Positions 9,651 to 46,697 of a stretch of 64,000 bases of DNA are shown piece by piece. Numbering within the stretch: position 1 is the first letter of the stretch; every line of letters begins with the position of its first letter. The DNA is from Girardia tigrina. Its lineage: Eukaryota. The notes under the pieces were generated by a model, which made no database searches, was not told the DNA's origin, and saw only the letters and a program-made list of their open reading frames with translations. The stretch lies in contig MQRK01233587.1 of the NCBI GenBank assembly GCA_001938485.1, forward strand, positions 1-64,000, given 5' to 3'. The position numbers and the translations under genes were made by a program.

Positions 9651-10129
9651 AAATACTTTCTTTTTATTCTATGGAACTACTAGCATAAAATTTCTGTCAT
9701 TCTCCTGCTTGCTTAACTTGTTCTTCTTGTAAATTTAATTTTCTTTTTACGTTTTCGTAACCTGATAATTTTCTTTTCGGTGGCATTTTAAATCAAAATA
9801 TGGCTATTTTAATTTTAAATTAAAAACAGTTTGGTAAAAAATACTAGTTTACTCCAAGCCCCCCACAAGCTTGGACCCCTAGGCTAGAGCCCTACCTAGA
9901 CCCTCCTTTGTGGGGGCCATGTTTGAAATTATATAGAATTTTTTAATTCATACAAATCGTGCAATTGGTTCATATTGCATACTAATTTCTTTAAAATAGT
10001 GATTAAAAAATCATTTGTCCGGTGACCTTTGGGGAGGAGTAGTAGAATTATTTTTATTATTTATCAATTTTTTTAATTTTATTGTATGAATTTTGTTATG
10101 ATTTTTATTGATGGGCTCAATATATTATA

Positions 10130-11378: not shown

Positions 11379-11892
11379 TGTAGTGACCCAGTCAATTATT
11401 ATATATAAATTATATATAGTAAATTATATATAAAATTATATATATAAAATTATATATAAAGCCAATCGAAGATCGATTAAAACAATCATTAATATTACGG
11501 ATTACAATTATATTATATTACTTACGAAACACTTTCCTGTAAAATTGGTTCGTGAATGTATTTTCTGCAAACCAATTTATCAATATTCCCCCTGAAAGTG
11601 CTTCTCTTCATGTAATCTATTTTCTCAAAATCTCGTGGTGTAACCGAATGATTCTCTGACATTTTAATGGATTTTGTTATAACATCAGATCGTTCCTTTG
11701 AAACCTTTGAACAACAAACACAAAATCGAAATCGAGATTTATCCATGCCGTTCACTCTCTCTCGTATGTGATTTTTTTTGTTATTTATATTTACTTATAT
11801 TGTGTAAAAATAAAAGTTTTATACATATTTATCTTTATTTTTTTAACGTTAAAGGAGTTCACTGAAACACGTTTTCAGTTAGCTCTTTTACA
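11379..11892 (+). mobile_element. Solo LTR (about 514 bp)
   Basis: TGTA...TACA termini, internal AATAAA near 11808, imperfect 5-bp flanks ataat/atatt, homologous copy at 46247. Confidence 0.7.
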
Positions 11893-14559: not shown

Positions 14560-16400
14560 AAAGAGGCATCAGATATTTGGATCCAAGATGTGAATGTGAC
14601 ACTGCGTTTCGCTATATGATTGACAGGAATGTCGCAGTTGTCATCAACAATATGCACGGTTTTAACTTGCAGAAGTTGACCGTCCTATAAGTGCCATTGT
14701 AATTGATCGTTGCAGTATTGTTGTCCGGATGGAACTGCAAGACTCGATGAGGGCCAGTGTATCGAGTTTAGAGCGATATCGGGTACTCTGGGATCAACCA
14801 GACGAACTTTGCTGAGAGCAATTCGCGGGGTACGTGCATTCTGTACGCACCCTGTTTTGGTGGTGAGGTGTCCAAATTCTTGAAATGCTGCCGAGCCAAT
14901 TCCAACAATCAGAAGAAAAGTTCATTCACTATGGAAGTGTTTGAACCAAACAGCATTTGCGACGGAGAAGTTCCTTGGCGACTGCTTGGAATGTTTCTCC
15001 ACCCCAGTAGAATAAATGACAGCTGTTTTATCCAGTTATGATTGATGGACATGGTTCTAGGACAAGGAATTCTTCAATGTCCAGTGAAATCTTTCAACGA
15101 GACTGTTCGATCGTAAATGAAATGCTGTCATTTTGATGCACTGAGTGCCGAGTCGCTGTAATAGATTGGTAAACAGCGTGGACTCAAATTGGCGAGCTTG
15201 GTCCGTGATTATACGCTTCGGCACACCAAATCTGGTTATCCAATTGTTGACAAATATCTCAACAATTGTTTCGGTGGTTATGTTCCTCATCGGAAACGCC
15301 TCTGGCCAACGAGAGTTCCAATCAATGATCTTCAGGAGATAAGTATAGCCATTACATGGTGGAAGCGGACCAACGATATCCATATGTATGATATCGAAAC
15401 GACTGCCTATCGGAAAGCTGAGAGTTTACGGCTTTGTATGCCTTGTCACTTTGTTGGCTTGGCCCTGGAGACAAGCTGTGCTCCATAACTTGACATCGCG
15501 GCGAATGAACGGCCACACAACTTTGGTGTGCAAAAGCTCATATGTTGCTTTGGAGCCGGAGTGAGCTATGGAATGGACTGCCTTGAAAGCATCCACACGA
15601 AGGTGTTCGTCTAGAACTGGACGAGGACAGCCTGCGATGGAGGTGTAGTAGAAAATATGTCTGCGTGTAGTGGGTTTCTCCTTGAAAAGAGACAGGTCCT
15701 TATCTGACGGTGGATTGACTTCCAAAGCTTCCTGGGAAAGATATGGCTGGAACTCCAATGCTGCCAGTTATAGCCGAGAGATGCGATCCGCTACAACATT
15801 GTCGGCGCGAGAAATGAATCTGACTTCAATATCAAACTGAGACAGGTAACTGATGTGTCTTTGTTTGCGTGGTGATGGATTCTTCATGTGGAAAATCTGT
15901 AGTAGAGGCTTGTGGTCAGTGTACACCGTTGAGGAACGTCCGATGAGCGTGTACTCAAAGTACTTCACAGACAAGAACAATCCGAGTAGCTCTCGATCAA
16001 AGGTAGAATACCTTATCTGAGTCGAAGAAAGCTTGTGCGAGTAGAATTCAAAAGGCTCTGGATTGTTGTCTCGCACTTGCATAAGTACAGCTCCGATTGC
16101 AATATTCGATGCGTTCGTTGTCAATGTAAGTGGAAGCGAGTTATCTGGATATCGTAACGATGTCATTGATATGATATCCTGCTTGATCAGCACAAATGCG
16201 GAATTTGCTTCCTGGGACCACGTCACACGCTTCTTCTTGGGTCCAGATGAGATGTCTGTGAGCGCCGCCAATGTACAGGAGAGAATCTGCCAGAATCTAA
16301 TGCAATAATTTACCATTCCCAAAAAGCTGCATATCGCAGTGACTGTTTCTGGTTTTGGGAAGTCCCTGGTGGCTTTGGTGCGCTTTTCTAGTGGACTGAT
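14560..16400 (-). mobile_element. Ty3/Gypsy pol relic (RT C-terminus, RNase H, integrase)
   Basis: SFLGMVNY, LTTNASNIAIGAVL, YSTFDRELL, TDHKPL, NVVADRISR, H-H-C-C zinc region, MDIVGPLP, IITDQARQFES, VERFH, GPHRV. Confidence 0.92.
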
Positions 16401-16861
16401 AGTAGTAGGAAAAAGGTACAAGACAGCCCCAAACAACATTTTATGCTTTTTTCCTACACCACTAAAATCCTTCTAATTCCTTCCTTTTTTTATAAAAAAG
16501 GATGAAATCCTATAATTATTTATCAATAAATTTGAGTTTGGAAAAAGCACATTTTTTATAAAAAGATCGCTTTTAAACGGTCTCATTCAGTTTAGACTTC
16601 TATATTAATGTGTAATGTATAATGTATAATGTAGAAATGTGAAACTATTAAATGCGATATATAAAAATGTTAACATAGTTCGAAATTCCTTATCTAGAAA
16701 TGGGGAAAATATATTATGATAAATCTGTTACTAAAAATAGTTTTGTTACTAAAAATAGAGTATTCTATAGAAGACTTTTTGATATATATCGTGAAATACG
16801 TATTAGTTTTTGATTTTACAAATTGTTTTATTTTTACAATTTGTTTTGTATTATATTAAAA

Positions 16862-18131
16862 ATGAATAAGCATTTATGTGAAACATGTTTAAAATATATT
16901 TCTAAATCTAACAAATCACACCATGAAAAAACTCAAATACATGCTAAAAATCTATCTCAAAAACAAGGTGGAGATCTTCAAACAACTTCATCAAAATTAC
17001 CAGACTTTCCATGGTCAAAATATAAAGGTGAACATCATCTGCCAAAGCATTCACATGCAGGCTCAGGAACACGTTTAGATATTCGATTAGATGAAATGAT
17101 AAACCAAAACCAGGAGAAGAACCTATAAATCGTATTGATGAAGCAGCTCTAAAACATAATATTGCTTACAGAGATGAAGATATTCATTCAAGACGAAAAG
17201 CAGATATTGATATAATTCAAAATTTAAATGAAATTAATAAACCAACACTTGGAGAAAGGATTGGAAGAACAATTTTAAAAACTGCAATGAAAGGAAAAAA
17301 TATGTTTGGCGAAGCTAATGAATTGCTAGCTCAAGAATTACATAAAGAATACAGAAAACCTAAAATATTTTTAAAAGTTAAAGTTTTTAATAAAGATGAT
17401 ATTTGGGGAGTAGATTTAGTTGAAATGAAAAAAGAAGAAGATTATAAATATATTTAACAGTTATAGATTTATATACAAAATATACATGGGCGTTTTCTTT
17501 AAAAAACAAAACAGGAAATACTATTAAAACTGCTTTTGAAAACCTATTTGAAAGTGACCAAAGAATTCCTAAAAAACTATATGTTCATCATGGAAGTGAA
17601 TTTTATAATAAAACATTTTTAGACTTTTTAAAACTAAAGCAGATAGAAATTTATTCAACTTTTAATCAACCTGATGACAGAAGTCAAGCACCATCTCATA
17701 ATCCGGTTATAAAAAGATTTAATAGAACTTTAAAAACATTTATGTGGAAAGAATTTACAATTCAAGAAAATCAGAAATGGTTAAAAATATTACCTAAACT
17801 ATTAAATTATTATAATCAAAAAGTTCGTAGAACAATAGGAGTTTCACCTGAAGAAGCAAATGATAATCCTGAAATAATAAAAGATAAAATAACAGATAAT
17901 GAAAATGAAAATATAAAAGATATTCAAAAATTTAATATTGGTTATCATGTTAGAATTTTTAAATGAAAAAATAAATTTGAAAAAGGTTTTACTCATAAAT
18001 GATCTAAAGAAGTATTTGTAATAAGTGAAGTTCATAAAACAAAACCTATAGTTTATTCAATTATCGATCTAAATGGTGAAGTAATAAAAGGAAGATTTTA
18101 TACAAATGAATTGCAAAAATCATCTTTCTAA
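16862..18131 (+). pseudogene. Zn finger + parvovirus-type phospholipase A2 + Maverick integrase (frameshifts and late stops)
   Basis: CETC..HEKTQIH; EHHLPKHSHAGSGTRL..RL..PINRIDEAALKHNIAY..RRKAD; then in frame LAQELHK..DIWGVDL..TVIDLYTKY..GSEFYN..KRFNRTLK..YN...RTIGVSP..GRFYTNELQK. Confidence 0.88.
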
Positions 18132-18158
18132 AATTATAATTTTTAAACATATATAAAA

Positions 18159-18389
18159 ATGGAGACACGAGAATGTATAGATTGTAACATATCTATCTTT
18201 TGGATTCGAGGAAATGATGCTCCTCCATTATGTGGAGAATGTTTTTTAAAACGGAAAACGCCTTCTCAGAATGGTTCTGTGGATCCGTATATTGCAGCCA
18301 TGTTCCACGAAATGGTTGCGAGTGCTCGGAGGATGTTAGAAAAACAAAACGAGAAACCAGTAGGTTCATTTAAATCATTTCAACAGTAA
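18159..18389 (+). CDS. Small Polinton ORF with a CxxC-CxxC zinc ribbon
   Basis: Intact 76-aa ORF, AAAATG start context, CIDC...CGEC. Confidence 0.5.
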   Translation: METRECIDCNISIFWIRGNDAPPLCGECFLKRKTPSQNGSVDPYIAAMFHEMVASARRMLEKQNEKPVGSFKSFQQ

Positions 18390-19669
18390 ACATCTTTCCA
18401 TTCTTGATCATGATTTTACAATGTTTTTCTTCGAACTTTATTTATTTTAAAGCTTTCGCTTTAAAGTTACTTGTTTTTGAAATATGAACTGTGATATCAC
18501 ATCCATTGACAGATAGTTTTTCATCTTGAGCAGAAACATAAAAACAGAATATTGAATACAGATTTTTAAAATCACGAATATTTAATGGAGCTGCTTCAAC
18601 TTGAAATTCTGTACACATTTTCAGATAAGCAAGATATGGTTACATTTGATAATTCTTTGCTGAATCAAATTCCATTTTATTGATTGGATAATAAGAGTTA
18701 TTAATTTATACTCTTAAACTTGTGATTTGATTAGCACCATCTTTTGGTATAAATAATGAATTATTTTTCTCTATTGAAGTAGTTAAATCTTTGAAAGCTA
18801 TTAAAACATATCTTGGTCTAGAATTGGTTAAACTCACTTTCCAACTTACATTTGTACTTCCAGCTGTAAGGTCATTTGTTGTACTATTTCTATTTAGGAA
18901 ATTTACTGAAATTGGTTTATCTTTATTTAATCTTTCTAAAAAAGCAACTTCACTTTTCGGATTAACTGTTAATTCAGGAATCCATAACTCTAATGATTTG
19001 ATTTCAACTTTTCCTGTTGGTGCTACTGGAGCTGTTTCAGTTACACCTGTTCCATATAAAATATCCGCATCATTTAGTTTTCTATTTAAAATAATATTTA
19101 TCGATAATAGAAATATAACTCTATGATAATTTTCTAAGAATACAAACAATTTATTTAACGGGAATCTTCCTTCTGATTGATGTGGTTTATCAGCTTTTAA
19201 TTTTTCTTCGTCATTGTATAATTCTTTTCTTGTTTTAAAACCATTACTTCCCGTAGTTCCTTTTCCTACATCTGGAATTCATCCAATAGATTCTCCTTTT
19301 GAAGATGCTCCATTTAACATTACAAAATTTAACATACCTGAAAACTCACCACAGTTATTTATATTTTCAACTTCTGATGAACCATGTTGCATCCTCATGT
19401 TTTCAAGCATTCTTGGAAAGAAGTTATTTTTGAGTGTAACATTTAAATTAGCAACAAATCCAGATAACTTAAGTTTGTAATAAAAGAATGCGTCACCTAA
19501 ATTCAAAGGATTACTTGTTTGATTTATTTGAAATTTGATATCGCCATTTTTATTTAAATTAGTTGAAGAATCGACACTAGCGGAAACTCTTAAATAATCT
19601 TCTTTTTTTTAAATTATGATCAAAATATGTTGTTTTATCTAATTTGAACAATTTCCATTCTTCTTCCAT
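18370..19669 (-). pseudogene. Polinton/adintovirus major capsid protein (double jelly-roll, hexon-like), disrupted
   Basis: NLNKNGDIKFQI, VTLKNNFF, ENINNCGEFSGML, PLNKLFVFLENYHRVI, LELWIP, RPRYVLIAF, INNSYYP, DFKNLYSIFCFYVSAQDE follow the motif order of Polinton MCP. Confidence 0.8.
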
Positions 19670-19719
19670 TTTTAAGGTAAAGATTTTAATTTTTAATTTT
19701 TAATTTTAAACCAATAAGA

Positions 19720-20258
19720 ATGAGTGAAACTTTAGAACATGATCTTCATGAAATAATTAAATCTGGAATTCCAAAAGTTGTAACTATTGATGGGAAAAGA
19801 GTTTATATCAGTAAGAAAATAATTAAACTTTTAAATGAAAAAGAAAAAGAAGGTGGAATAATACCATTAGCAGCATTGATTCCACTAATTATGTCAGTTG
19901 TTGGCGGAGCTGCTGGAGCTGTTGGTGGAGTTACTGGAGTTGTGCAATCAGTTAAAGAAAGTAAAAAGCTGATGCTCAAAAGAAATTAGCTGAAGAAGAA
20001 CTTAAAAAGTTAAAAGATGAAGCAGCAAAGAAGGAAGTAAAGAAAGTTGAAAATAAGGAAGGCGAAGGTCCTTTTCTTGATCCTTATCAAGGTAGAGGAA
20101 TAGTTGATTATTTAAAAACTATCTTAAAAACTTCAAATGTTCAAAATCCAGAAAAGGAAAACCTTAAAAAAATCATTAAGAATTTGAAACAAGGTATCCA
20201 AATTAAACATTCAGGAAATGGTTTATTTTTAAATCCTTATAAACATAATGAATTTTAA
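19720..20258 (+). pseudogene. Polinton core protein with an adenovirus pX(mu)-like segment; one frameshift
   Basis: EGGIIPLAALIPLIMSVVGGAAGAVGGV resembles adenovirus pX GG-ILPLLIPLIAAAIGA; continues after a frameshift to EGEGPFLDPY..GNGLFLNPY. Confidence 0.65.
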
Positions 20259-20388
20259 TCAAAGTACTAGATACTTCAATCAAAAAGAGACTCGTACTTT
20301 TGACTACGAAAGACGATGGTCTATCGTAAGATATACGAGATGATTACCCGCTTAAAATTACTTAAATTATTATCTAAAAAAAGACAAA

Positions 20389-20988
20389 ATGTCAAACAAT
20401 CCTTCATTTTTACATTATAAAATGAGTAATACTAACACATTTACTGATACAATAAAATCATTAAATTCATTTTATAAAGTTGCTGTTTTGGATAAAGCTT
20501 TAAGTTTAAAATTAAACAATCCTAAAATGACAAAGAAAGAAGTTGCAAGTAATTTACATATTTCTGAACGAACATTACAAAGATATTCTGCTGATGTAAA
20601 TGAAGAGATGTTTAAAAAGCGAAAACAAAAAGCTGTTTATAGCCCAACTAAGTGTGACAATTGTTATTTTATATCAAAAATTAGATCGGGATTATCAGCC
20701 CATACAAGAATAAAACATGTAAATGAATATTTATCAAGTAGACAAAACTCAGACACAAGTGTTCATCGAGTTGATAAAAAACTGATAACAAGTCGAGACA
20801 AAGTTAACATGTATCAGCCAAACATGTCTGAAAACGATCTAAATGGATTCTACTCAAATACGGAAAATAACTGCAATTCATGTTCTTTTATAGCAAAAAA
20901 TAAGACTGGATTATCTTTTCATATAAGAAGTAAATATTCAGATACAGGTGGAAATGATGTTATTGACTTACCTAATAACATCGGTTGA
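20389..20988 (+). CDS. Polinton accessory protein: helix-turn-helix plus two C2H2-type zinc fingers
   Basis: MTKKEVASNLHISERTLQRY (HTH), CDNCYFISKIRSGLSAHTRIKH, CNSCSFIAKNKTGLSFHIRSKY; frame continues past the TGA to about 21045. Confidence 0.65.
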   Translation: MSNNPSFLHYKMSNTNTFTDTIKSLNSFYKVAVLDKALSLKLNNPKMTKKEVASNLHISERTLQRYSADVNEEMFKKRKQKAVYSPTKCDNCYFISKIRSGLSAHTRIKHVNEYLSSRQNSDTSVHRVDKKLITSRDKVNMYQPNMSENDLNGFYSNTENNCNSCSFIAKNKTGLSFHIRSKYSDTGGNDVIDLPNNIG

Positions 20989-23150: not shown

Positions 23151-24789
23151 TTCTTTTATTAAGGCCTCAGAATCACTAATCAATTTCGATGTCCTTTTTT
23201 TGTTTCGTTACTATGTAGTCATTATTATTTTTTTTTATTTTGACTATATAATGTTTTTATTATTTATTCATTTTTTTATTTTTTTCTTTTCTTTTGTTTT
23301 TTGTGATATATAATACAACGATAAATACACAATTCTCAAATCAAATAATCATCGAATGTGAATTGTCTTCTATCATTGAAAGATCCTCCCATTTTTTCTT
23401 AAGAAAGCCCAGTCGGCACTCCCCACAGACGACACTGTGAGAAAAACCTGTTAAAATTTTGGCGAGTTCGTAAATTTTGAATTTTAAAAACGCAACATTT
23501 AAAACATATTAAGATATTTCAGTAAAAATTAATATTTGTTGTGAGGAATATTTTTGAATGGTGTTTATTGTGTGTTGTTTGGTATGTTGTTTTAGGATTG
23601 TGTTTCTCCCACCCAGATGGAAGATTGATATTTTAAAACGTCGAGTTGTTTAATCAATTATTAAAATTTAAATAATCACTTTAAAATTAAATTAATATTT
23701 CATAAATAATAATAATTTTCGTAAAATGAATAAAAATTATTTCAAATTTAAAGTATAAATTAGTTTTGTAATAATTAAATTGTAATTTAAATTTGTTTGA
23801 ATAATAAGATGTTAAAGGATATTATTAAAGATTATCAATCAAGAACGATGACGAGCTACGCAAGTTTTACGGAGAATTGTTCTAGTGGCAATTCAAATTG
23901 TGATATAAATAAATGTAAAGAAAACCCAATTAATGTTCTTAATATTTGTAAAAATATATAATACTTCATTAAAACAGATTTTCAAAGTGGTTGTTGAAAA
24001 AATTTATTTTAATTAAAATTAAATAGCTTTTAAAATAATTCAATTAAAATCATAAAATGTTTAATCATAAATTAAAAATTAAAGTAAAATTTATCTTAAT
24101 AAAAAAATGAAATTTAATGTTTAAAATAGAAATAAAATTTAAGGGAAAAATGTGACAAATAATAAAATTAATTTAAAAATTATAAAAACCAATTTATACA
24201 ATTAAACAAAAGCTTATATNNNNNNNNNNNNNNNNNNNNNNNNNNNNNNNNNNNNNNNNNNNNNNNNNNNNNNNNNNNNNNNNNNNNNNNNNNNNNNNNN
24301 NNNNNNNNNNNNNNNNNNNNNNNNNNNNNNNNNNNNNNNNNNNNNNNNNNNNNNNNNNNNNNNNNNNNNNNNNNNNNNNNNNNNNNNNNNNNNNNNNNNN
24401 NNNNNNNNNNNNNNNNNNNNNNNNNNNNNNNNNNNNNNNNNNNNNNNNNNNNNNNNNNNNNNNNNNNNNNNNNNNNNNNNNTCTAATATTTATTTATTAA
24501 TATACAATCATTTCTTTATTGATTATAAAATCATTTCAAAAATTTACCTTACAGCGTTAGTGAGGCAGTGAGTGACTTGGGCTTTTATAAGATAAGATAT
24601 ATAACTTTTATTTATAGATGGTTCTTGCAAACTAAAAATATTGTTCCTCAAAAATTTGTTTAAAAAGTAGTTAAATGTTATAGAAATAAATGTTAGTGTT
24701 CTAAATTCTGTTATTGATCACGAATCTAACACAATCGATGCTCGGTATCAGTCTGCGCAGCCGCAATCCGTCCAACGATTCCCCATTTA

Positions 24790-25400
24790 TCGGCCCCCTC
24801 TCAGAATGAATCGACCATAGGTCTTCAACAATTGTCTAAAAATATTTTGAAAATTGTTGATTTTCAGTCGAGAAAGATGTTCATCTAAAAAGCCCAAACG
24901 GAAAAATCGAAGGCTGATTGATTGGAGCTATTTAGAGGAAACAAATCCTTCCAGAGATATTCTTTGATTTTCTAGATCAAGAAAGTCAGTGTGCTCTGAT
25001 TTACGTCGACATGCTCGCAGTCTTGTTTGAGGATCAGTCCTGGATTTATTTGGTTCGACAGAATGATGGACTTTTTAGTAATCTCATCTTGGTCAATATC
25101 GGCGTTTATTCTAATGCTTTTGGTAAAAAAAATCAGCTCCATTGTGCCATTTAAACTTTAAACCATTAAACGTTTTAAAACAACGTCTTTGTTGCAATTT
25201 TTCTGTTACGGCTATTTTTTGACCTGATGAAAAGAGTTATCAATGATTAGATGCCATTAAGGCGATACACCGAAGAAACCTTTCTTGAGACGTTTTTATT
25301 TTGCTTTGTCTGTTAACTGCTGTTCGTTCAAATGTTTTTTTTGTACCCGATTGATTAAAGAGTCAATCAAGCCTTTCTGCGACTTTTTGCGTTATTATTA
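24790..25400 (-). mobile_element. Highly degenerate Tc1/mariner-superfamily transposase
   Basis: RINAD...LKQD...KDLFPLNSSNQSAFDFSVWAFL corresponds to FQQD...WPPxSPDLNPLDFxVW. Confidence 0.55.
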
Positions 25401-26069
25401 AGGTTTACACAGTCATTCTGGTTATGCAATTCATGATTATTTCTCCAGATTTTTACAGTTAATAGACGACCCTGTTTTTTCTAATCATACAATTGTACTT
25501 AAATACAATGAAAATGTCGTTATACTTAAAATTCAAAAGAAACTACATATGATACTGTAGAATAAATTTTAATTCATAAACAAATACAGTAGATGATCAG
25601 TGAGGAGAAAAACTCTGTAATGAACAAAGAAAATTAATTATATGCACTCATCGGCCAACTTGTATAAAAAATAAATTCTGATATAAAATGACTGTACTAG
25701 TATATAAAAAAGGCATTACATTACGAGAAATATGATAAAAAGAAGATGATTGTGACCAAAAGTCGCAGTAGTCAATTGTGAAACAAAGCGCGAACTATCC
25801 TCTAAAATCAAAACTTCTGGAGTTTGTAACCAATTTTAGCCTGCATTTCACTGGAAAATATATGTTGTCCTTAAAAGTCAAATTAATCTGTGAGATAAGA
25901 AAATATGAGTTGTTTAAATAATATCGAAGAAGTGTGTTATTTAAAAAAATATTTTTATTGATTGATTCTCTTGTCATTGATTATCATTAATCAAGGGCAG
26001 ATCCAGGTGGGGTAGGGCTGGGTAAAGGTGGTAATAACCCCCTTGGATACGTCCTAGCCTCTAAACCTA

Positions 26070-26419
26070 CCTGAGTTATACGCAATGAAACAAGAGGCTC
26101 AAGCTCGGCAGAACCCATTTGTCTGACGAAGATTTTGATGATTTAAAAATGTAAAGTGGGCGCCACATCGTCTACGTGAGATCTGGGCTGGCCCGATCGT
26201 CGTAAATTGATCCTGGGACTTGGATCGAGAGAAACTGCTGAAAAAAAGTAATAGCCTACCGGTTTCGGATGGTGTTGGGATATAGTGGGGGCCACCATCT
26301 TGCCCGTCAGCTTCGGAATGATGTCGATGCGATTTGAGGTCCGGTGAGTTGTCGAACAGCTTTGTGAGAAAATTGAAACAGTTTTCGACGCATAAATCCT
26401 CTAATGAGCTGATATGCAT
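26070..26419 (-). pseudogene. Degraded host-gene exon, possibly a ZYG11/ZER1-like N-terminus
   Basis: SSLEDLCVENCFNFL resembles a BC/VHL box; GC-elevated; ends at a cag|gtaggt donor-like site. Confidence 0.3.
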
Positions 26420-27886
26420 TTTGGAGATATATGAAAGAAAGAGAGAGATATAGGTAGATGTAAACAGAGGTTGTGGTAGAAAAAAACTTCAAGTAAAAAT
26501 GCCAGAATGAGATAAAAAGAAAATAATCGAAAAATATTGAAAATGTTTATTGCCATTAAAAAGATTCGAATAATCCACCGGAAATAAGACTTATTTACAT
26601 GGTTAAAACAAAATTAATTTAGTTAATTCTTTTTTTTAAATTAATTTCCGACATTTTTTTACGTTCTAATGTTGTCGATTCACTCCATTTTTTAAAATTA
26701 AATATCGTATTTTTTGCACATTTTTTTGTTAGTTTTGATAAAATTAAATTAGTTGATTAATAATTAATTTAGTTAAAATTAAATTAATAGTTAAATTAAT
26801 AAATTGCGGTCACTACAATAAACATCTTTTGTAGTGTGTTTTTTGCATTCTACTTCGTCTTTTTTGTATTTAAATCACTCTTTTTAAATTAAAATTCTTT
26901 AATTTTGCATTCAAATTACCCCCCACCTTGGAATTTCAAATTTAAACATAAAACCTTGTAGATGCATTTATGGTTTTGACAAAGAAAACTCAAATTTTAT
27001 CGGTCCCCAACGTTTCATAGTTTGATTATTAACTTTCTCAAGAGTTCAATAATCTAATGAGCTACAAGGTCATATTCTACGGAACTTATTTTGTTTAGAG
27101 ACATTATAACAAAATACACCAATATTTGATACAAAACGTTTACTCTTTCTTAAGTTAAAGTCCACAACATTCAGTCCGTTGGTCTATTATGTCAAAAAGT
27201 ATTTATCATAAAACAACAAAATTTGGCATGCAACTTAAGAATATGACACGGGCGTTACCAAAATTTTTCGTAGAAATATACAGGGTATTAAAAAATTTAT
27301 GGCCAAAAATGTAGTTTTTTGAAATGGAATTGTTATAATATATTTAATTTTTAGAACGTACTTAATAAATGCTATTTAAAAATATCATATTTTATACAGG
27401 TTGATCCAAAAGTAAGGGGACGACTAAATATTTCGAAAACTAATGTTCATAGAAAAAACTTTTCTACAAAAGTTTTAAGAAATTAAATGTTATTTATAAA
27501 ATTTATAAAACTCTCAAAGAATATTAATTCAATTTTTTATTAAGATATGTTTATATTTGTGTAAATTGTTTAAAGGTATGTGAATGTAGATGCGTCGACG
27601 TTTTGCAAAAAGTAGTTTGCAATCTTATAATAAAAATCAATGTTTTACTCTTCGGGAACTAACAAACTACGGGCATCACGTAAAGAAAAAGTCAGTTTTT
27701 AAGAGCAACCTGAATGTCGAACTCCGACGACTATTGACAAAAATATGTAGCACACTCCAGAACTCCTCCAACGAATACTTTTATGCAGGTAATGATCTTG
27801 TGGAACTTGGACTTGTGTCAGTAACAGAAAAATATGCCATGCAATCGTTAGTGCAAGCATTTGACATCTCACTTTGTTTGACATCG

Positions 27887-29620
27887 TCCTTTAACTTCTT
27901 TTATAGAATATTGCAGATTTAAATAATCTGCTCCTAAAAGCCTGTCAACCTGATTCTGATTTACGAAATTTCCAAACGGAATGTCCTTCAAGTGTAGCCA
28001 TTTGCATTTTATCTTTTCCAAATCACACACTTTTAAGTCTCTCGTTACGTCATCTACGACTAATAGACTCAGTCTTTGTCTTAACGATCCATTTGTGGAA
28101 TTCAGTTCAACATTTACTCTATCAGCTTTTACTGATTTGGTACCATTCAAAACTCGAATTTTCATTTCTTTGGTTTCTCCGACTAAACCCAACTTGTCAG
28201 CCACATTTTTATTAATGAAAGAATTTGTGCTAGCGTCGTCAAGTAATAGGTTCACTCTGAGTCGATTTACTTTATTTATTAGATAAACGGGAATGGTTCT
28301 CAAAGACACAGAGAATTCATTTTCCTCTATGAGATCAGTGAAAAATGTCCCACCACTCAGAATCTGATTAAACTCTTCTTGTGGTGTTTTGCCTTTTCGC
28401 TCTTCTTTACTTTCCGTGTGTTTATTTTGATCTGAACTTAAAACATCTTTTTTCGAGTGTAGGTTTCTACAGTTGGTACGAATATACAATTGCCGGATTC
28501 GAAATATTTGCATTTGATTGGAATTTCTTCCTTTGTTAAATCGTGTATGTATCTGCATGCATTTCCTCTTCTACAAATTCCTTTTTGAAAATCCCAACAT
28601 AGTGTCCTTCCAAATTCTCTTTCTGGTTGAGCTGCCCTTTTTTCTTTCTTTTGAAAAAAATCTTTTCCACTACATATTTCTCGAATATCTTTCTTTCGAT
28701 CTTTGGGATTAAATACGCCGATACCATGAACGGCTTCCACATCGGTCCGCTTTATTTCTACTTCATTTATCAGCCAATCGTTTAAAACTGATAAATTTTG
28801 AGGTTTTCCTTCTGAAAGCTGAGTTCTCTCCCAGCGCTCGACTAAAACTTCAGGTAATTTTGCCAACAAAGTAATGTAGAGTAATCATCCTTCAATCTCC
28901 ACTTCCTTGTTATTATTCTCTGATCTGGAAATAATAGCTTCCAACAATCCTACGAAACATTCTAGGTCCTTTAAATTATTTGCCCTCACTGGAAAGAACT
29001 CATTTATTTCTCTCATTTAATTGGTGTATTGCCTCTAAGTACCTCCATATCGTTTGTCCAATTTGGCTAATATCGTTTTGTAGGATTCTTTGGTTATTTC
29101 GATGTTTTTGATCAATGCTTTTGGTTCGCCAACAAGGCATTGATCCAACATTATTTGCTTCGCAATATCTGTCATCTTTGAGGAATTGACACATGCCTCG
29201 AAAGTTCGCTTCCATTTTTCATACTCACCCACATTTCCAAAAAAAATGGGTAAGATGACCGGTTGGAATTTTATCTTCCACCATCTGAACTCGTTCCTCT
29301 TCTTTGATCTGTTTATGATTGATGTTGAATCTCTGCTTTGCAGCTGCCAGCACCTCTTCGTTTTTATCTTCTAATTTTGTCAATTCCTTGTCGATTATTT
29401 GGCTGTACTCCTTTTTCTTTAACCGTTTGGTATTAATTTCGATTGTTTCGAAATCCTTCAGCACTTCAATATAGCATTCGTTATACGAAACCATCGTTCT
29501 ATTGAGTTCTTCAGTTGATATTTCCTCATGTCCGAGCTTACTTCTTAATTGTAATAATTTATCCTTTGAACTCCTTCGGCAAAGCATTTTTCTGTCTAAT
29601 TCATCTTCATCCATTTCCAT
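27887..29620 (-). mobile_element. BEL/Pao LTR retrotransposon gag-protease relic (frameshifted; RT, RNase H and integrase absent)
   Basis: DUF1759-type LPIFFGNVGEYEKWKRTF..K..L...LVGEP..Y...L.KRYGG; KLPEVLVERW; Pao protease LRTIPV..VNLLLDDASTNSFINKNVADKLGL..VDRLLGADY. Confidence 0.88.
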
Positions 29621-29848
29621 GCCTCCTTTCAGGCCAAGCAGAAGATAAATTGTAGCATTCTTAGTTATATTGCTCTCCTTTATTGACATTTCATCTCTTA
29701 AAACTTTCCCAGTGAACCATAATTTTTGCAGGGTACTTAGAGTTCCCTCCTTGTTTTCAATTTTCGTTTTGATGTGCTTTATTGTTTCTCGATTCTTCAC
29801 ATCCGAGGCAATTGTTTTGCCAGAAAGTGTTTTTATGAATATCTGCAA
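29621..29848 (-). CDS. Ubiquitin-like domain (76 aa) inside ORF 29225..30370
   Basis: LQIFIKTLSGKTI...KEG...GK.L.D...NI.K..T..L.LGLKGG is colinear and ungapped against ubiquitin; 35/76 identities by manual count. Confidence 0.93.
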
Positions 29849-29911
29849 ATCTGTTTCTTTTCCTTCAAACCTTTTCTTTTCATCCTCATCTTCCAGTAAA
29901 TCGAGATCTTT

Positions 29912-30801
29912 ACTGCCAATCGACTTCAATTCCAACACAGATGATTCTTTCAATTCACAATTCACCTTGCCATTATCACTCAAATTGTCATCGGTCACTT
30001 TAATCTCCACAAACTTCTGTCTCTGCTCGTTTACTCGAATCCTAATCATCGACACAGACCCGTTGTCCGACGTCCGATTCGACTTAATAATCTCAATCTT
30101 CGGTTTATTATCATTGATATCGTCCACATTAATGACGACCTCGGTGTCACTCAACACATCACTCGCTGTCGATTTATTCGCGTCAACTGCCGATAATTTA
30201 AAAGAAAATGTCCCGGTAGTTTTTGCCGACAATTTCTTATTCAAAATAATATCTCCATTATCTGGATCGATTTTAAGGAACACGGAAATTTGCCGATTGA
30301 TTCCTCGTGCCAATTCGTATTTCGTTTTGTTATATCTCGATCCGTCGGTGTCCACCGCGACGACTCTCATGACGACATTATTGTCGGGATGACTCTCAAG
30401 AATCTTTTTCTCGTATTTCGGGACTACGGATCGTTATCGTTCTGATCATCAACGTTGATGATGATGAGCGAGTGGATCAAGCAGTCTTTATTGTCGTCAC
30501 ATGCAAACAAGAACGCCTCGTTCACCTTCTTGATCTCGTAATTGATCGGTCTCGTCAAAACCACACTCAAATTCTCCAATGCCGAACTATCCAAAATGAA
30601 AGTGTTCGTCGTCTCACGGAAACTGTATCGCTGAAGGCGACTCGCCGCACCAACATCAACATCCAATACGCCGCCGACATCGCGAATTCCCCAACCAATC
30701 AGATCCGCCAACACAGAATCAATCCTCTTCACACCAAATTCATATTTTTTCATTTTCAATGTGACAAGTAACCAAGTTCTGCTACCAAATTTTCTGTTCA
30801 T
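29912..30801 (-). pseudogene. Protocadherin-type extracellular cadherin repeats (partial; one frameshift near 30424)
   Basis: Calcium-binding motifs LDVDVG, INYE, VDDQNDNDP, AVDTDG, AVDA, VDDINDNKP, VTDD..NGKVNCEL; no intron seen. Confidence 0.88.
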
Positions 30802-32016
30802 TTTTTGCAAATTTTAATTAATCGAAATGAATGAATTCAGTTCACTTTTTTTAATTTCAAGCAATCGAGTCACGTACACAATTTTTAATCTTTATTTCCA
30901 ATATTAAAATTCATTTTTCAAGTAAATAATAAATAATAATTAAATTGGTCAATTTAAACAAATTTGACCTTGAACCCAATTTTAATAATAATTTTTAAAT
31001 GTTTTTACAATTATAACTTGACAATTAAAATTAAATGTTTTTTATCAGATTTGTAATTAATTGGTTCATTTTGAATCTTCCAATTGTTATTGTCCGTATT
31101 TTGGAAGTTATTGTAATTTAATTACCTGAAATTATCCCATGGATAATGAAAATTACCAAGGGATAAACTTAAAAATTCAAAATAAAAATAATAACAATAA
31201 TAATTAGTAGTAATTACTTACCGCTGAAATACATATTGCATCAGTGTTATTTATCTCCTCGAAATTGTACTTAGAATAATTATTTCTTTGTAAAAAGAAA
31301 AGGTCGTCTCACCTAATTATTCGCAAAAAACTGAAGTTTACTCAAAACTTGACTGACAATTCCTTTTATAGCAAGAATTATATCTGGCGATTATTTTTTT
31401 ATTTTAGTTACATTACGTTATTTATTCCATTATGTTTGTTAAATTTGTTAGTCAATATTTTTCTGTGAATTTATTCGCGGCAATATATTTGTTTTCATTT
31501 ACTGATTCCTTCGCTGTTAATTTCTCTTTATAAAAGTAATCTCAGGTTCTGGAACTTTATGTTACTCTTACAAGAACAATTCTCAAATTATTCAAATATC
31601 TATTCTTTATTTTAATTTAAATTTTGTTTTTTTATTTATTTAAATTATTTTTTTAATTTATTTTCTTTTAATTATTTTATTATAACATATAAAATATAAA
31701 AGCGCAAGCAATATGCAATCAAAGGGTCAGGTATTACCATTCCATAAAGTCGATTGTAATTTCGATTTGAATTTGTCTTGAAAGGATGATTATCAATAAT
31801 GATAATACAAAAAGAAATATAATAATTATTTGAATTTAAATTCCGAAAAATATAATTTACTCTGAATGGCAAGACACAAAATCAATCAAAACAGCAGTGG
31901 CGATATTTGAATTTAAAATTAACCAACAGTTGAATAATAATGGCAGATCATATAAAATAGAAATTAAATTTTTAGCTTAGAATTGCAACTCACATAAAAA
32001 ATCATTTAATATATAG

Positions 32017-32721: not shown

Positions 32722-34567
32722 CAGTTAAACCTGCATAAAGCAACCACCGATCTTTTCAGACCACAAATTTTGAACCAAAAGTTTCTGCACTGAATTTTAC
32801 ACAGCCATTCCCACCACCAACCTAATGTTTATTCTGACCACCCTCTTTAGGTACCACGATTAAAAATTACCAGTTTTTACGATGTTAGCCAATAAAAAGA
32901 AATTTGGAACCTAAAGAAAACCTTTTTTCATTACTGGGTTATTAGGTTCTTGATTAAGAATAGAATTCATCAACACAAAACTTTATTTCAGTCACAATAA
33001 CAATTATTTAAACAATTTTTCTTGTGGAACTTTTCTTTTGTTTTCTTTTGACCAGATTAATTATATATAAAAATACTGGATTATAAATACAGATAAGTTA
33101 TTTATTAAAAACGATATTTTAAAAATTGAATTTTTTAATTACAATTATTTTATAGATTACCATTTTAATGTTTTATAAAATTTCTTCGAAGTACATTATA
33201 AATCTACATAATTTAATTTTTATTTTATATCCTTTTTTAAAACGTCTATTAGCTAATTTACAATTATTTTTATTAATTTCAAATTATTTTGACGTTTTTA
33301 TTTCAATATTTAATTTAAAAACAATTTAACATTTATATAATTTAAATATAAAAAAATAAGAAAATTGAAATTTATTATTTTACTCTAAAATTTATGTTAA
33401 TTATAAAATTTTAATGGCTGTTTTATTATTTACAAAGCTGTGTAAAATTTAATTATTTATCAAATTATTAATTTACAGAACTTTCAACTAACTTTAATAT
33501 TTAAAATTATCTGTTTTTAAAAATTACATTTCTATCAATCAAAATTTCATTAATTTTATTTTCGAGAATAACGTTTAAAATTAATTTTAAACATATAATT
33601 TTCCTTGACTTTATATATTTTTTTTAAATTAATCATTTTAAGTTTATCAAAAAATACTTAACCAAAAATTCCAAGTAATTCGTTTCATGGACCACGCACC
33701 ATCTCACAAACATGATTTACGACTGACGAATACCAAAATAATGTTCTTGCCACCAAATGCAACTGCTGCTTCTCAGCCATTTGATCAAGGAATTATTCAG
33801 GCCATGAAAGTTAATTACCGAAAAACCTTTCTTCATGCAATATGTTTATGTGTCGATACAAAAGCAGATGATGTTCATAAATCTATTGAATAGCTGAGGA
33901 AGTCTGCCACAATTCTAAATGCTGTTTGCTGGATCGCAAAAGCTGTTCGGGAGATTATTCATGCTGCAGTTATGTGATGTGTTTCTAATCGTGGATTTCC
34001 TGTAGTTTTTGCACCTTTCTTCAGCTTCACAGCGAATGATTATGTGCCAGATATTCAGGGTCTTATTAATTTGTCTTCTAATGTTCTTCATTATCCAGAA
34101 TCATCGGTTATGTCTGTTGACAAATTCTTTAATGTTGACAATGAATTGCCTACCGAAATGGAAGCCGGTGTTAGCACAGATGGGGAGGAAATAGAAATTA
34201 AATCTTTCTCGGAGGAACAAAAGTAGATACATTTTCTGGGTAAGTGCCTTACCTGAAAAAAGCAGAAGAAGTGCAATGTCATGCTCTGGAATTAAGAATG
34301 CATGGTAAACAATTGACAATAGACTCTTTCGTGAAAAGAAAAGAATTTCTTTGAAATAAGTAAATGTTATTTCCGTTTCACTTTTTATTCATTGAAAAAA
34401 AGCCTTGCGTGGCTACTTTTTCACAAATTTTAGGTAAAAAATATGAGCACCTTTATTTTACTCGTATCTTAATAATACAACAATATGAACTGTCTAATCC
34501 GACCACCTTTGTATTAAGACCGGCTACACTGGACCACGAGGGTGGATTTAATATGCAGGTTCTACCG
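32722..34567 (+). mobile_element. Tigger/pogo DNA transposon, deleted and interrupted by an AT-rich insertion
   Basis: TA-flanked imperfect TIRs CAGTTAAACCTGCATA / TATGCAGGTTCTACCG; DDE_1 motif MDHAPSH...FLPPNATAASQPFDQGII at 33687. Confidence 0.8.
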
Positions 34568-34989: not shown

Positions 34990-37900
34990 TTACAGCGGTG
35001 TCAGAACTAGTTCGCTCGATTGAAACCAAGTCTCTACGAAACTGCCACAATACTTCGATGCGGCGGACATGTTGTTTCGACAAGTTGAGGCCGTTTTCAA
35101 ATTGTCCAAGACCTCCAGCGAAACGACGAAATTCCTTCACTACATTGCCAGCCTTCCACCATACATTCTCATGGAGTTTCAAGACTACTTCAATAACGAA
35201 TCGGCAACACCGTACACGGATCTCCAACAAGCAATAATCCGGAGTCGCAAACAACCATAATCATTTTGATGCGCCTTTCTCTGCTAACAACATTGGCGAC
35301 TGACGTCCGTCGGAGCACCTAAGCATTCTACAGCGTCATCGTGCACAACTCGGACCGACTTCCGAGGACGATCAAATTCTATGGAACACCTTCCTGTGGG
35401 CACTTCCAATTGAAATCCAGAAACAACTCATCGCGAATGGGAGCCAAACCTTATCACACCTAACTTACTCGCAGATGATCTACTCAGGGTTAAACAAACC
35501 AACTGTATAAATGTCGCGGAAACAAATCCTTTCCTAGCCCAAATTGAGTAACTCACGGATGAAATAAATCAAATCAAAAGGAGAATCGATAAAAGCGAAA
35601 ACCAAAACCAGACCGTCATATGCTATTATCATCGCAAATTCGGTCACAAAGCACAGAAATGTCTCAAACCATACAACTTGAACGAACACAAATCTTTGGG
35701 AAAAGTCAAAGATTCGGCGTGAAACCGGTAAGGCTGAATCACACAAAACCACCGGATCAGGTATTCTCAATTTTTACTGTTCCAGCCACCACAAACAACA
35801 AGATACTTCACTTTCTTGTCAATACGGGCACCGACGTAAGCATCCTACCCTACAGTTTATTCCAACCCAGTGGCGGATCGGAAACTCAGAAGCTCGTGAC
35901 AGCAAATGGGCAGGATATCCATACCTATGGGAGACATACGATCGAATTCCAGTTCACAGGGATACAAAAAAATTCAAGTGGAGCTTTATACTGGCCGACG
36001 TTCTGAGACAGATTTTAGGATCAAACTTCCTTGCTCACGAGGACATCACTGTCGACCGCAAAAGGAAAGAAATCTCAACAAGAAACCACACTATCTCGGG
36101 ATCAGCAAAGACATGCCACAGCGTCACGCCCTCAGCAACCGAGGTCACACCCGCATTGAGAATAGAAACAAACGGTCCTGCAATAGCCCAGAAACCGAGA
36201 AGAATTAGGAATCACATTCTCAACACGATCCGCGAGGAATTCGATCGCCTATTAGCAGAAGGCACAATTAGAAGAAGCACGAGCTCCTGGTCATCTTATT
36301 TACCGTTCTTGCGGTAACTACAGGCTTTTAAATTCTGTAACACGGCCGGATAGCTACACTCTGCCCAGAATATCAGACATTCTCGATCGAATATCCGGGA
36401 AAACAGTCTTTTCAACGCTAGATCTAAGAAAAGCGTTTCACCAAATTCCGATTCATGAGACCGACATCCACAAGACGGCCGCAACGACACCCTTCGGGCT
36501 ATTTGAATATACCACCATGCTCTTTGGCTTACGCAATGCATCTCAGATGTTTCAAAGATACATGGATGCTTTGCTTCACGGCGGTGAAGCCTTCGCAGCC
36601 TGCTACATTGATGACATCATCATATTTTCGGACTCGCTCGAGCAACATGAACAACATCTGTCACATATAATTAGCCTACTGCAACAGAAATCATTAAAAA
36701 TAAACGAAGATTAATGCAAATTCAGAGCAACCGAAGTCCAATTCATTGGCTTTATGATTTCCAAGAGTGGGTTCAAACCCATCCAGAAACGAATTTACGA
36801 CATCGCAAGCCTCAAAGAACCAGGCGATACAAAAGCGCTCCGAAGGTTCCTGGGAGCAGCTGTATTTTATCCATGGATGATTCCAAAATTTTACAAAACA
36901 ATGGCTCCACTCCATGATCTGCTCAATAAATCGAACAGAAACAAGAAAATCACACTGAATGCCTCACAAAAACAAGCGTTTTACTCAATCAAACAGAAGC
37001 TCAACGAAATCACCAATATGGAACCATTCGATCATAAAAAGGATCTAATTCTTTGCACTGATGCCTCAAAGACAACCGTGGGAGCAAACCTTAACGATGA
37101 AATCAATGGGCAACTTGCATCGATAGCATTCTTTTCATGAAAGCTAACGGTAGCCGAACAAAAATTTTCAACCCTTGACTGAGAGCTGCTCGCTATATAT
37201 CTGGCCACCAAGAAGTTCAAACATTATCTAGAAGGTTATAAGATTCTTTATCTTTAAGATTCTAACAGATCACAAGCCTCTCATATACATTCAGTCCATG
37301 AATGAACCATCCAACAGACAATGGAGGCACTAGAAATCCTTAATCAATTCTCGTTTAAGCTGCAATACATAAAGGGCTCTGAGAATATTGTTGCAGATTT
37401 CCTCTCCGAGAACCAGGAAGATCTGATCGAAATAACGGAGATATCCAAATCTGATCTCATCAACGAGCAAGATAAAGAGAAAAATTATCTTTTCTCAGAC
37501 AATGAATTAAAAGTCAGAACAGAGGGAGGAATTCTAATAGACGTAGCCAATGGAAAGAAACAAGTCATTTTATCAAGCAAGTTTCGCCATTCCGAGTTTC
37601 AGCATTCAGTTTCAGTTTCCGGTACTAACAAAACCATTGATCTAATCCGAGCCCGCTATGTTTGGAAAAGGATGAAAGCAGACATCCGAAAATGGAACCG
37701 AGAATGTCACAAGTGTCAATCAACAAAAATAACCAGACAAACCAAATCGAAACTTGGCAAACTTCAGGACAGAGGCAGATTCAAAGTACTACACATGGAC
37801 ATTATTGGCCCACTGCCGATGGCAGAAGGTAAACGCTATTTATTGATATTCACTGACAGGCACTCCTCATGGCCCGAAGCGGTTCCTATCAATGATATCA

Positions 37901-38545
37901 CATCCACCGCCGTTTGCAAAGCACTCACCAACTCGTAGATCTCTCGCTTTGAACCACCAGAAATCATCATTACTGATCAGGGCAGACAATTTCTCTCGAG
38001 CCAATTCAAAACCACATGTGAGAGATTCGGAATCGAACACAGGCAAACCACCGCATATCACCCTCAGTGTCAATGGGAAGATTGAGTGAATATACCGCTC
38101 TCTTAAAAATGCACTCAGAGCACACTGTGAAACATATGAACAGACGTTGGTGCGCGATCTACCGATCGTTCTACTCGGATTAAGAAACGCCACTATCCCT
38201 TGTTCAATGGTCTCTCCCGCACAACTCCTCTACGGTTCCTCCACCAGACTTCCAGGAGAGATCATCACAGACAACGAGAACCAGGAACTCTACACAGACG
38301 ACCACGTCACACGAGCTATAACCGAATTCGGTATTCCAATCGTAAACAAGCAGTTGGCCCGCAAGATCTTTCTACCACAGACTCTCAAAGACTGCAAACA
38401 CGTATGGATCAAGACCGATAACTCTTGCTCGCTGAAGCCATCATACGATGAACCTTATGAGGTACTCAGCAGATCATAAGACTTGAAAACCTTTGACCTA
38501 AAGATCGATGGTTGCACATAGAAGGTCTCAATAGACAGATTAAAG
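34990..38545 (+). mobile_element. Ty3/Gypsy (CsRn1-like) gag-pol internal region with many stops and frameshifts; no LTRs recognised
   Basis: Gag FRQVEAVF..TKF..LP, RPSE, CYYHRKFGHKAQKC; protease FLVNTGTDVS; RT LDLRKAFHQIP, FGLRNA, YIDD; RNase H TDAS, TDHKPL; integrase HMDIIGPLP, ITDQGRQF. Confidence 0.93.
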
Positions 38546-45299: not shown

Positions 45300-46130
45300 C
45301 GTACTTTACAAGGTAAAGTAAATTGAGGAGATTACATCAAGTGTGAGAAGTTTCATCTCAAAGATGAGGGACTCAAGCACCTGATCAAGGGCGCTGCGTC
45401 CAAAGGACTGGATGAGGCGATCGAACAGAGAAGAGAGTATCCGAAAATGCTTCAGGCTCGAGAAAAGAGAGTACAATGTACTTTCTCTTCTTGCTTTAAA
45501 GACTTCGCAGAGCAGAAGGAATTAAGAAGGCACATAAAGAACGTGCATACGGTCATAACGAATCAGGGATGTGATGAAAGCGACAAATCTTTCCTATGCC
45601 CCATGGAAAATTGTTATAAGAGATATAAAACAGATGGATGGTTACAGCGACACTTATTATTATACCTCAGGTACCAATGAACTGCAGAATAACAGCAGTA
45701 ATGAAAGACGTGCAGACTCTATTATTGTTCCGACCGAGATACAAGATGTGACAGTGCTGTTCGACCGCACCACTGAAATAGACCAAGGAGTGATAACTCC
45801 GGAGGTTCGAGATTTTCGGCTAAGTAACATAACGGATAGAGGGGAATTCCGATGTCCCTTCCCCCGTTGTGTGAAGTGTGTATACACGGCTAAAGCTCTG
45901 CAGAACCATGACACTCTGTAGCACAACTGGTCTTTTCTGAGGGGGCTTAGTGCCCGTGCACTGAAAGCTCGCATTCCTGCATCCGAAGCCGTGCAAGGAA
46001 GTCAATGACTCTGTATTTGTGAGTGTAAACACTTTATAGTTTCGCCCGAGACAGAGCCAGCGGCTCACTACCCTGTACGCCAATGCTGCTTACGCAGTTA
46101 TCCGTCCAGTCGGGGAGGCTTTATTTTTTT
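45300..46130 (+). mobile_element. Three C2H2 zinc fingers, probable N-terminal relic of an RLE-type non-LTR element, downstream of NTPDase exon 3
   Basis: CTFSSCFKDF..LRRHIKNVH, CPMENCYKRY..WLQRHL, CPFPRCVK..ALQNH; frameshifted, intronless, GC-elevated; element assignment is inference. Confidence 0.5.
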
Positions 46131-46246: not shown

Positions 46247-46697
46247 TGTAGTGACCCAGTCAATTATTATATATAAATTATATATAGTAAATTATATATA
46301 TAAAAACAATCATTAATATTACTGCTTACAATTATACTGTATTGCTTGCGGGGCGTTTTCTTGTTAAATTGGTTCGTAAAGGAGTTTTCTACAAACTAAT
46401 TTATCAATATTCCCTCTGAAAGTGCTCCGCTTTATGTGATCTATTTTCTCAAAATCTCGTTGTGCAACCGAATGATTCTCTGACGTTTTCATCGATATTG
46501 TTACAACAGAAGATCGTTCATTTGAAACTTTTGAACAATAAACACTAATCGATATCGAGATTTATCCCTGCCGTTTTCTCTCTCTCGTATGTGATTTTTT
46601 TGTTATATATGTTTATTTATATTGTGTAAAATAAAAGTTCTATACATATTTATCTTTATTTTTTTGTTACGTTAAAGGAGTTCACTGAAACACGTTT
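46247..46697 (+). mobile_element. Second, 3'-clipped copy of the solo LTR at 11379
   Basis: Starts TGTAGTGACCCAGTCAATTATT and is colinear to ggagttcactgaaacacgtttt. Confidence 0.75.

Follow-up and report, generated by a model that had tools for sequence, protein, structure and literature searches.

A ubiquitin-led Gag of BEL/Pao type behind a cadherin module in Girardia tigrina: a probable capture of host mRNA by a retrotransposon

BEL/Pao retrotransposons, which carry long terminal repeats (LTRs), are described as having a Gag with a DUF1759 region, a zinc-finger region, a DUF1758-like protease, and an 18-nt primer-binding site (PBS) near the 5′ end (PMC8742986, PMC554778, PMC3118150). All of these are found in a unit on the minus strand of a 64,000-nt stretch of DNA from Girardia tigrina (contig MQRK01233587.1, positions 1 to 64,000; this whole stretch is called the window below). 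Unlike the described elements, the unit has a cadherin module and a ubiquitin-like domain ahead of Gag, zinc fingers of the CCCH type, and a PBS that matches initiator tRNA-Met (tRNA-iMet), and it has neither pol nor a 3′ LTR. The window itself is AT-rich and crowded with broken transposons, in which CpG is not strongly depleted.

The capture of host genes by LTR elements is already known. An LTR-mediated route has been reported, also for Pao/BEL elements (BATUMI and BEL18_AG are the Pao carriers named), and its products are truncated host mRNA fragments without introns that lie in sense orientation within an LTR element, as the cadherin module does (PMC5131818). However, the reported retrocopies are young and stand between discontinuous pieces of LTR elements, whereas the cadherin piece is joined in frame to ubiquitin-Gag, and at least two diverged sequences represent it. 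Similarly, the giant Gypsy-like planarian elements known as Burro/GYPSM1 encode LTR polyproteins with in-frame host-type domains, including a Ubi2/SUMO-like one (PMC6431247). These belong to the Gypsy lineage and carry the extra domains after Gag; in the window, by contrast, ubiquitin is at the N-terminus of Gag and ends in Gly-Gly.

A third parallel comes from cytopathic pestiviruses, which are unrelated RNA viruses. Here, ubiquitin is a host-cleaved processing signal in the polyprotein, captured and used as a site at which host hydrolases free the following protein with its authentic N-terminus, and the ubiquitin of the window may act likewise. In CP Rit, extra host sequence (a piece of S27a) even lies upstream of ubiquitin, as the cadherin does in the window (PMC8310069). 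Nevertheless, the pestiviral inserts are recent and near-canonical, while the window ubiquitin is 47% identical to the canonical unit and is shared by elements that are about 40% alike in their protease. No description of a cadherin- or ubiquitin-led BEL/Pao Gag was found in the portion of the literature covered; Repbase, the Burro genome paper, and the supplements of PMC3118150 may hold one, and a BEL family from Schmidtea that was reported in Repbase in 2008 and is cited in PMC3118150 may already note such domains. The words “ubiquitin” and “cadherin” are absent from the text of PMC3118150, “ubiquitin” from PMC6238403, “cadherin”, “BEL”, and “Pao” from PMC11410931, and “cadherin” from the review of planarian Burro elements (PMC6431247).

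Along the minus strand, the order is PBS, cadherin, acidic linker, ubiquitin with its Gly-Gly, Gag, CCCH fingers, and protease (Table 1). A single frame holds a cadherin repeat, ubiquitin, and the helical N-terminus of Gag, and other frames hold the DUF1759 region, the zinc finger, and the protease. The arrangement is probably best read as the capture of host mRNA into a slot that ubiquitin cleavage would make harmless. According to this proposal, a BEL/Pao lineage would produce Gag fused behind a ubiquitin moiety with a Gly-Gly end, and host deubiquitinases would cut after the Gly-Gly to give a Gag with a fixed N-terminus. During reverse transcription, one family may then have changed template to a delta-protocadherin mRNA and returned, which would have put about 830 nt in frame and in sense orientation between the PBS and ubiquitin, and the chimera would have been copied onward as a family. 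The insert would leave Gag undisturbed, and the chimera would be able to spread, because everything upstream of the Gly-Gly would be cut off.

Table 1. Features of the cadherin-ubiquitin-Gag unit, listed in the direction of the minus strand
Feature	Position in window	Strand	Remarks
Candidate 3′ part (R-U5) of the 5′ LTR	30795..30896	-	AATAAA at 30896-30891; CA end at 30796-30795, 7 nt ahead of the PBS; assigned from position
18-nt PBS complementary to the 3′ end of initiator tRNA-Met	30770..30787	-	Sole match in the window
First ATG after the PBS and degenerate cadherin repeat (EC2-like)	30427..30753	-	In another frame; frame change near 30427-30433
Complete EC3-like cadherin repeat, then the N-terminal half of an EC4-like one	29919..30418	-	PF00028; PDB matches to delta-protocadherins
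Acidic linker, with the cadherin/retroelement junction at its upstream edge	29849..29918	-	Common to window, P0046, and P0101
Complete 76-aa ubiquitin-like domain with Gly-Gly end, followed directly by Met of Gag	29621..29848	-	Pfam E 3.2e-16
Helical N-terminal region of Gag	29272..29620	-	Aligns with P0157, P0158, and P0163 right after their Gly-Gly; frame change near 29330-29370
BEL/Pao Gag capsid region (DUF1759)	28717..29271	-	PF03564, E 1.6e-8; three stops within the frame between 28885 and 29037
CCCH zinc fingers at the nucleocapsid position	28441..28599	-	Whole finger at 28599-28543; second from 28512, cut by a frame change
BEL/Pao-type aspartic protease with LLDDA motif	27884..28309	-	Pfam; element breaks off here

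The main frame runs from stop to stop at 29225..30433 and encodes 402 aa, or 381 aa if started at the Met at 30370, which is the uninterrupted frame (29225..30370) of the original prediction, made from the sequence of this stretch alone. Cadherin (PF00028) is recognized by Pfam at aa 10-103 (E 3.7e-9 to 3.7e-10) and ubiquitin at aa 198-266. The whole repeat and the half repeat behind it match extracellular cadherin (EC) repeats EC3-EC4 of delta-protocadherins (best PDB matches: 6vg1, E 1.4e-17; Pcdh-19, E 4.4e-17). Upstream of them, the EC2-like repeat has no Pfam match; it resembles Pcdh-18 (E 0.0045), and its best phmmer domain has an E of 0.002 compared with 0.18 for a reversed control. In total, the module amounts to about 2.5 repeats, from EC2 to mid-EC4. 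The protocadherin-type repeats predicted for the 381-aa frame are thus of the type proposed, although this frame holds only one whole repeat and about half of another, with the EC2-like one in a different frame. A match of the cadherin part to Anthrax_toxA (E 0.037, below the cut-off) was rejected as chance.

An intact delta-protocadherin, with signal peptide, EC1-EC6/7, transmembrane segment, and cytoplasmic tail, is not present. No other cadherin piece (EC1, EC5-6, or membrane anchor) was detected in the window by tblastn with eight cadherin proteins, and hydropathy indicated no signal peptide or transmembrane segment in any of the six frames (highest 19-residue Kyte-Doolittle mean, 1.13). 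The parent protocadherin gene was not found, the best cadherins being 26-30% identical. In base composition, the module is distinct from what follows it: G or C occupies the third codon position in 146/275 codons (53%) of the cadherin and in 175/518 (34%) of ubiquitin-Gag-protease (p 2e-7), CpG is also more frequent in the cadherin (62/833 vs 52/1959 in the remainder, p 3e-8), and both GC and CpG fall sharply at the junction with the acidic linker.

The position of the PBS places this module within a retroelement. The 18-mer matches the 3′ end of the Schmidtea tRNA-iMet at 16/18 positions, which none of 100 shuffles equaled (tRNA from the supplement of PMC7962491), and the tRNA-iMet PBS given in PMC1797187 at 15/18, as did 2 of 100 shuffles. 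The first ATG past it, after a gap of 16 nt, opens the cadherin frame, and the chance of finding a PBS 16 nt ahead of this frame is about 1.6e-5 when 100 sites and 50 tRNAs are allowed for. Thus, the cadherin is inside the LTR element, with the PBS in the place expected for a protocadherin signal peptide and EC1. The original prediction did not include this PBS. Other scans of RNA and promoter features gave nothing: three sub-threshold Rfam matches, none of them real, no tRNA by ARAGORN, folding of the 5′ leader no better than in shuffles (z +1.1), and chance-level matches to a bacterial promoter model, which is not applicable here.

The junction recurs outside the window. In the furthest-reaching tblastn matches, cadherin similarity ends at about 29918-29927, near the junction predicted at 29912. 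A phmmer search against 1.84 billion representatives gave 16,606 matches, and the best 150, which were examined, include two close relatives, while the remainder of them resemble polyubiquitin or multi-repeat cadherin matches. A search centered on the junction returned the same two, P0046 and P0101, among 267 candidates; they come from different source databases and from contigs of 640 and 1069 nt. P0046, a 153-aa fragment that is open throughout, spans the cadherin, the linker, and the first 8 residues of ubiquitin with 19 differences in 151 aa (87% identical), and its cadherin part is 89% identical over 120 aa (13 differences). P0101 spans the linker, ubiquitin, and the start of Gag with 18 differences in 123 aa (85% identical). 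All differences of both from the window are single-base changes. In the 31 aa where the three overlap, four private differences belong to the window, two to P0046, and two to P0101, and this spread over all three is the pattern of separate copies. In the five residues that precede the linker, P0101 does not match the window (0/5), a weak hint that cadherin-free family members or a parent form may exist.

These two sequences are also what an unlikely alternative has to account for, namely that a single capture or rearrangement never spread by retrotransposition and that P0046 represents this locus in a related strain or species, or is a segmental duplicate. It would agree with the finding of only one other junction sequence, which comes without flanks, with the neutral look of the divergence of P0046, and with the hint of cadherin-free members in P0101. 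Nevertheless, P0046 and P0101 are about equally far from the window, and private differences are found in all three, as in sibling copies of one burst.

The differences in the cadherin part bear on a further alternative, which is rather unlikely: the same capture took place, but the cadherin has been retained by selection, for example as a released cytosolic decoy, a scaffold, or a particle-displayed module. Between the window and P0046, these differences are not more conservative than expected from random point changes (P 0.21-0.34, in a comparison of low power); the third repeat is halved, the base composition is unblended, signal peptide and anchor are lacking, and none of the nine distant relatives described below has a cadherin match, though several lack their N-terminus. 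Selection would fit better with an insert that is in frame and sense and has its start just past the PBS and close to a repeat boundary, with the several calcium-site motifs that are kept (the invariant D79, D100-N104, and D143), with the open frame of P0046, and with the many host-type domains retained by planarian Burro elements (PMC6431247). The env-like or cell-contact function that had been considered for the module finds no support, as the last repeat is incomplete, signal peptide and anchor are missing, the differences look neutral, and the module stands beyond the probable cleavage site. The cadherin is probably a cytosolic passenger and not an envelope or adhesion protein. A broader claim is unlikely as a whole: that a BEL/Pao lineage hands the first Gag cut to host deubiquitinases, which opens a permanent cargo slot between the PBS and Gag for host pieces that are taken up, spread, and made as free cytosolic proteins, with the protocadherin kept for a function and RNA-binding CCCH fingers of cellular type replacing the nucleocapsid knuckles.

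The full ubiquitin-like domain predicted in frame is present down to its Gly-Gly. Compared with the canonical unit, it is identical at 36/76 positions; all seven lysines and G75-G76 are kept, and I44, H68, V70, R72, and R74 are changed, a pattern more in keeping with a tag for cleavage than with a conjugated modifier. The Gly-Gly is probably a deubiquitinase cut site. The distant relatives, nine among 661 candidates, are 36-41% identical in the protease. Five of them have Peptidase_A17 and a reverse transcriptase (RT), four of these five also have an integrase and DUF5641, and the full-length P0159, P0162, P0163, and P0164 show the order protease, RT, RNase H, integrase. In three of the nine (P0157, P0158, and P0163), a ubiquitin tail with Gly-Gly comes right before the same helical start of Gag. 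In P0157, Pfam recognizes ubiquitin and DUF1759, and this protein aligns over the fusion point at 29% across 151 aa, while P0158 and P0163 start within ubiquitin, which is seen there by alignment only.

The presence of ubiquitin-Gly-Gly-Gag in three of nine distant relatives makes it an older clade trait. In a DUF1759 tree of 78 columns and 8 rows (P0156 and P0160 lack the region and were excluded), the window groups with the same three at 99/98. As judged from these alignments, ubiquitin-Gag is older than the cadherin and shared across a clade, and the cadherin was added later and is seen in a single family. Consequently, the two modules are not the two like captures that had been supposed. 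The other six relatives comprise three with long N-termini without ubiquitin and three without an N-terminus. One of the former, the full-length BEL/Pao polyprotein P0164, carries an AMPK-type glycogen-binding domain (PF16561, aa 155-236, E 3e-24) N-terminal of DUF1759, apparently another capture of a host domain. An Atlas search with ubiquitin-Gag was non-informative (top score 0.76). As a separate observation, P0156 combines a BEL/Pao protease with an RT of apparent non-LTR (long interspersed nuclear element) type and lacks Peptidase_A17; here, a nested insertion has probably been read as a single gene.

Several observations weigh against the capture scenario. The sole other sequence found to span the junction, P0046, is a fragment that lacks DNA context and might represent either an orthologous locus or a segmental duplicate, and the neutrality comparison of amino-acid differences has low power with 13 cadherin differences. 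No full-length cadherin-ubiquitin-Gag-Pol protein was found; a search for longer proteins (705-2010 aa) gave five single-domain matches among 7996 candidates. In the ubiquitin, R72, R74, and I44 differ from the canonical residues, P0101 has Gly-Ser at the position of the probable cleavage site, and Pfam finds no ubiquitin in P0158 or P0163. The window sits on a long branch in the DUF1759 tree, the protease tree (143 columns, 10 rows) neither groups it with the ubiquitin clade nor rejects the grouping (p-AU 0.317), and the helical Gag segment alone falls short of E 1e-3 against P0157, P0158, and P0163. A second LTR and a target-site duplication were not found, no LTR pair scoring above shuffled sequences, nor was a polypurine tract (a purine run of 12 or more nt with at least 4 G) within 24490-27887, so that the element has only putative bounds; the absence of these features would be expected if the 3′ half is lost. 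A 29-nt AT-rich match between 31028-31056 and 27480-27508, considered as an LTR pair, was rejected (score 38 vs a shuffled maximum of 44). Finally, the PBS matches tRNA-iMet, whereas the profile of the International Committee on Taxonomy of Viruses gives tRNA-Arg or tRNA-Gly, from few exemplar species, as the primer of Belpaoviridae (PMC8742986); Arg and Gly tRNAs were not scanned. Given these listed primers, the tRNA-iMet site could derive from another element.

Such an origin is the core of an improbable third alternative, in which recombination joined a ubiquitin-Gag BEL element to a different element of Gypsy or Copia type, primed by tRNA-iMet, and the PBS and the cadherin stem from the latter, the unit being a hybrid of two elements. 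Priming by tRNA-iMet is reported for GalEa-type Copia (PMC3587641) and unlisted for Belpaoviridae, although the small number of exemplar species behind the latter statement reduces its weight, and a mosaic history shows in the CCCH swap and the undecided protease tree; however, the 16 nt between the PBS and the cadherin contain no Gypsy or Copia coding remnant.

The swap concerns the nucleocapsid position. Pfam finds zf-CCCH in frame 28441-28884 (E 3.9e-8 to 2.4e-9), the PDB matches are of the CPSF4/MBNL type, and no CCHC motif occurs in three frames of 27872-29400. Zinc fingers had been predicted and are present, but they are CCCH fingers and not the CCHC knuckles of Pao Gag. The triple Cys-His box is a hallmark of Pao-like Gag, with Tas as a reported exception (PMC554778); it is complete in eight of the nine relatives, and the ninth begins inside the region. 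Judging from one copy only, CCCH fingers stand in for this box. The protease gives an Asp_protease_2 match in frame 27872-28570 (E 5.4e-7) and a score of 0.95 to an Atlas DUF1758 cluster, with the family on 25% of cluster members. Of the motifs reported for Pao-type proteases, LLDxG and LIG (PMC554778), the window has the equivalents LLDDA and LLG, with A instead of G as the fifth residue of the first; LLDDAS is found in all nine relatives, a set biased by the word search. The unit works like a BEL/Pao element, and its Gag and protease are of this type. Because it departs from two listed BEL/Pao features (the triple Cys-His box and the Arg/Gly primer) and has no RT, it is called BEL/Pao-derived and is placed in no named clade; for lack of the RT, it is likewise assigned to none of the superfamilies (Flow, Suzu, Sinbad, or other).

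The copy is dead, and what is left of it corresponds to the 5′ half of an LTR retrotransposon of the BEL/Pao type. BEL/Pao similarity ends at 27884-27887, where the element breaks off after the protease, and tblastn with the nine BEL/Pao relatives found no Pao-type RT, RNase H, or integrase elsewhere in the window; the one match obtained there was weak and was to a Gypsy integrase. The copy is interrupted by six breaks, of which three are frame changes and three are stops, one in the 833 nt of cadherin and five in the other 2034 nt (p 0.68), an even density that fits the decay of cadherin and retroelement as one unit. The DUF1759 region is 25-34% identical to eight relatives by tblastn, and its Pfam match lies in frame 29038-29370. 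The 381-aa frame reaches Pao Gag in that it includes the helical start, but its last ~35 codons lie past a frame change and DUF1759 is in the next frame; the frameshifted continuations proposed as DUF1759 Gag and aspartic protease were confirmed, and the Pfam run suggested as a check found Cadherin, ubiquitin, and DUF1759, and in addition zf-CCCH and Asp_protease_2. Structure prediction gave a pLDDT of 37 with a single sequence and 40 with a 4-row alignment.

Seven runs of N mark assembly gaps in the window, which is dense in broken elements, and these might suggest that a genomic protocadherin was joined to a nearby ubiquitin-Gag element by deletion or by an assembly chimera, in frame by chance; this very improbable option, of which the joining by deletion was also raised in the original prediction, is largely refuted in favor of retroelement capture by the PBS standing where a signal peptide and EC1 belong, by the same junction in the independent record P0046, by the lack of any gap closer than 1.8 kb to the unit, and by the absence of other cadherin pieces from the window.

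On the plus strand, a 247-aa frame at 29649-30392 is the shadow of the minus-strand frame and was rejected. Directly past the protease break, about 300 nt (27590-27880) are moderately GC-rich and carry a 110-aa plus-strand frame (27593-27919) with sub-threshold Pfam matches only. Farther away, a broken Polinton/adintovirus-like block at 16814-20985 holds a phospholipase A2-like frame (PF08398, E 8e-5), an integrase (rve), and a double-jelly-roll capsid frame at 18709-19278 on the minus strand (E 3e-12). Decayed Gypsy-type pieces are found at 35593-38476 (+; protease-RT-integrase), 15060-16472 (-; RNase H-integrase), and 8693-9729 (+; a Gag-like frame without Pfam match followed by zinc knuckles). 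Related repeats starting with TGTAGT, 85-98% alike in parts, lie at 11379-11724 and 46247-46548 and are possibly solo LTRs of one family. There are also a MULE transposase fragment at 3966-4595 (+; E 7.5e-8), with the nearby 3412-3977 repeated inverted at 32942-33492, and C2H2 zinc-finger frames at 45327-45918 (+; E 2.6e-6), possibly part of a DNA transposon.

The ubiquitin-Gly-Gly-Gag lineage and the swap to CCCH fingers deserve no less interest than the cadherin. If the cleavage is real, an LTR retrotransposon would mature through host deubiquitinases, a device shown for pestivirus variants, and this would explain how in-frame cargo such as the cadherin could ride at no cost. The exchange of the triple Cys-His box for CCCH fingers, in turn, would be a natural experiment on the need for CCHC knuckles in packaging the genomes of reverse-transcribing elements.

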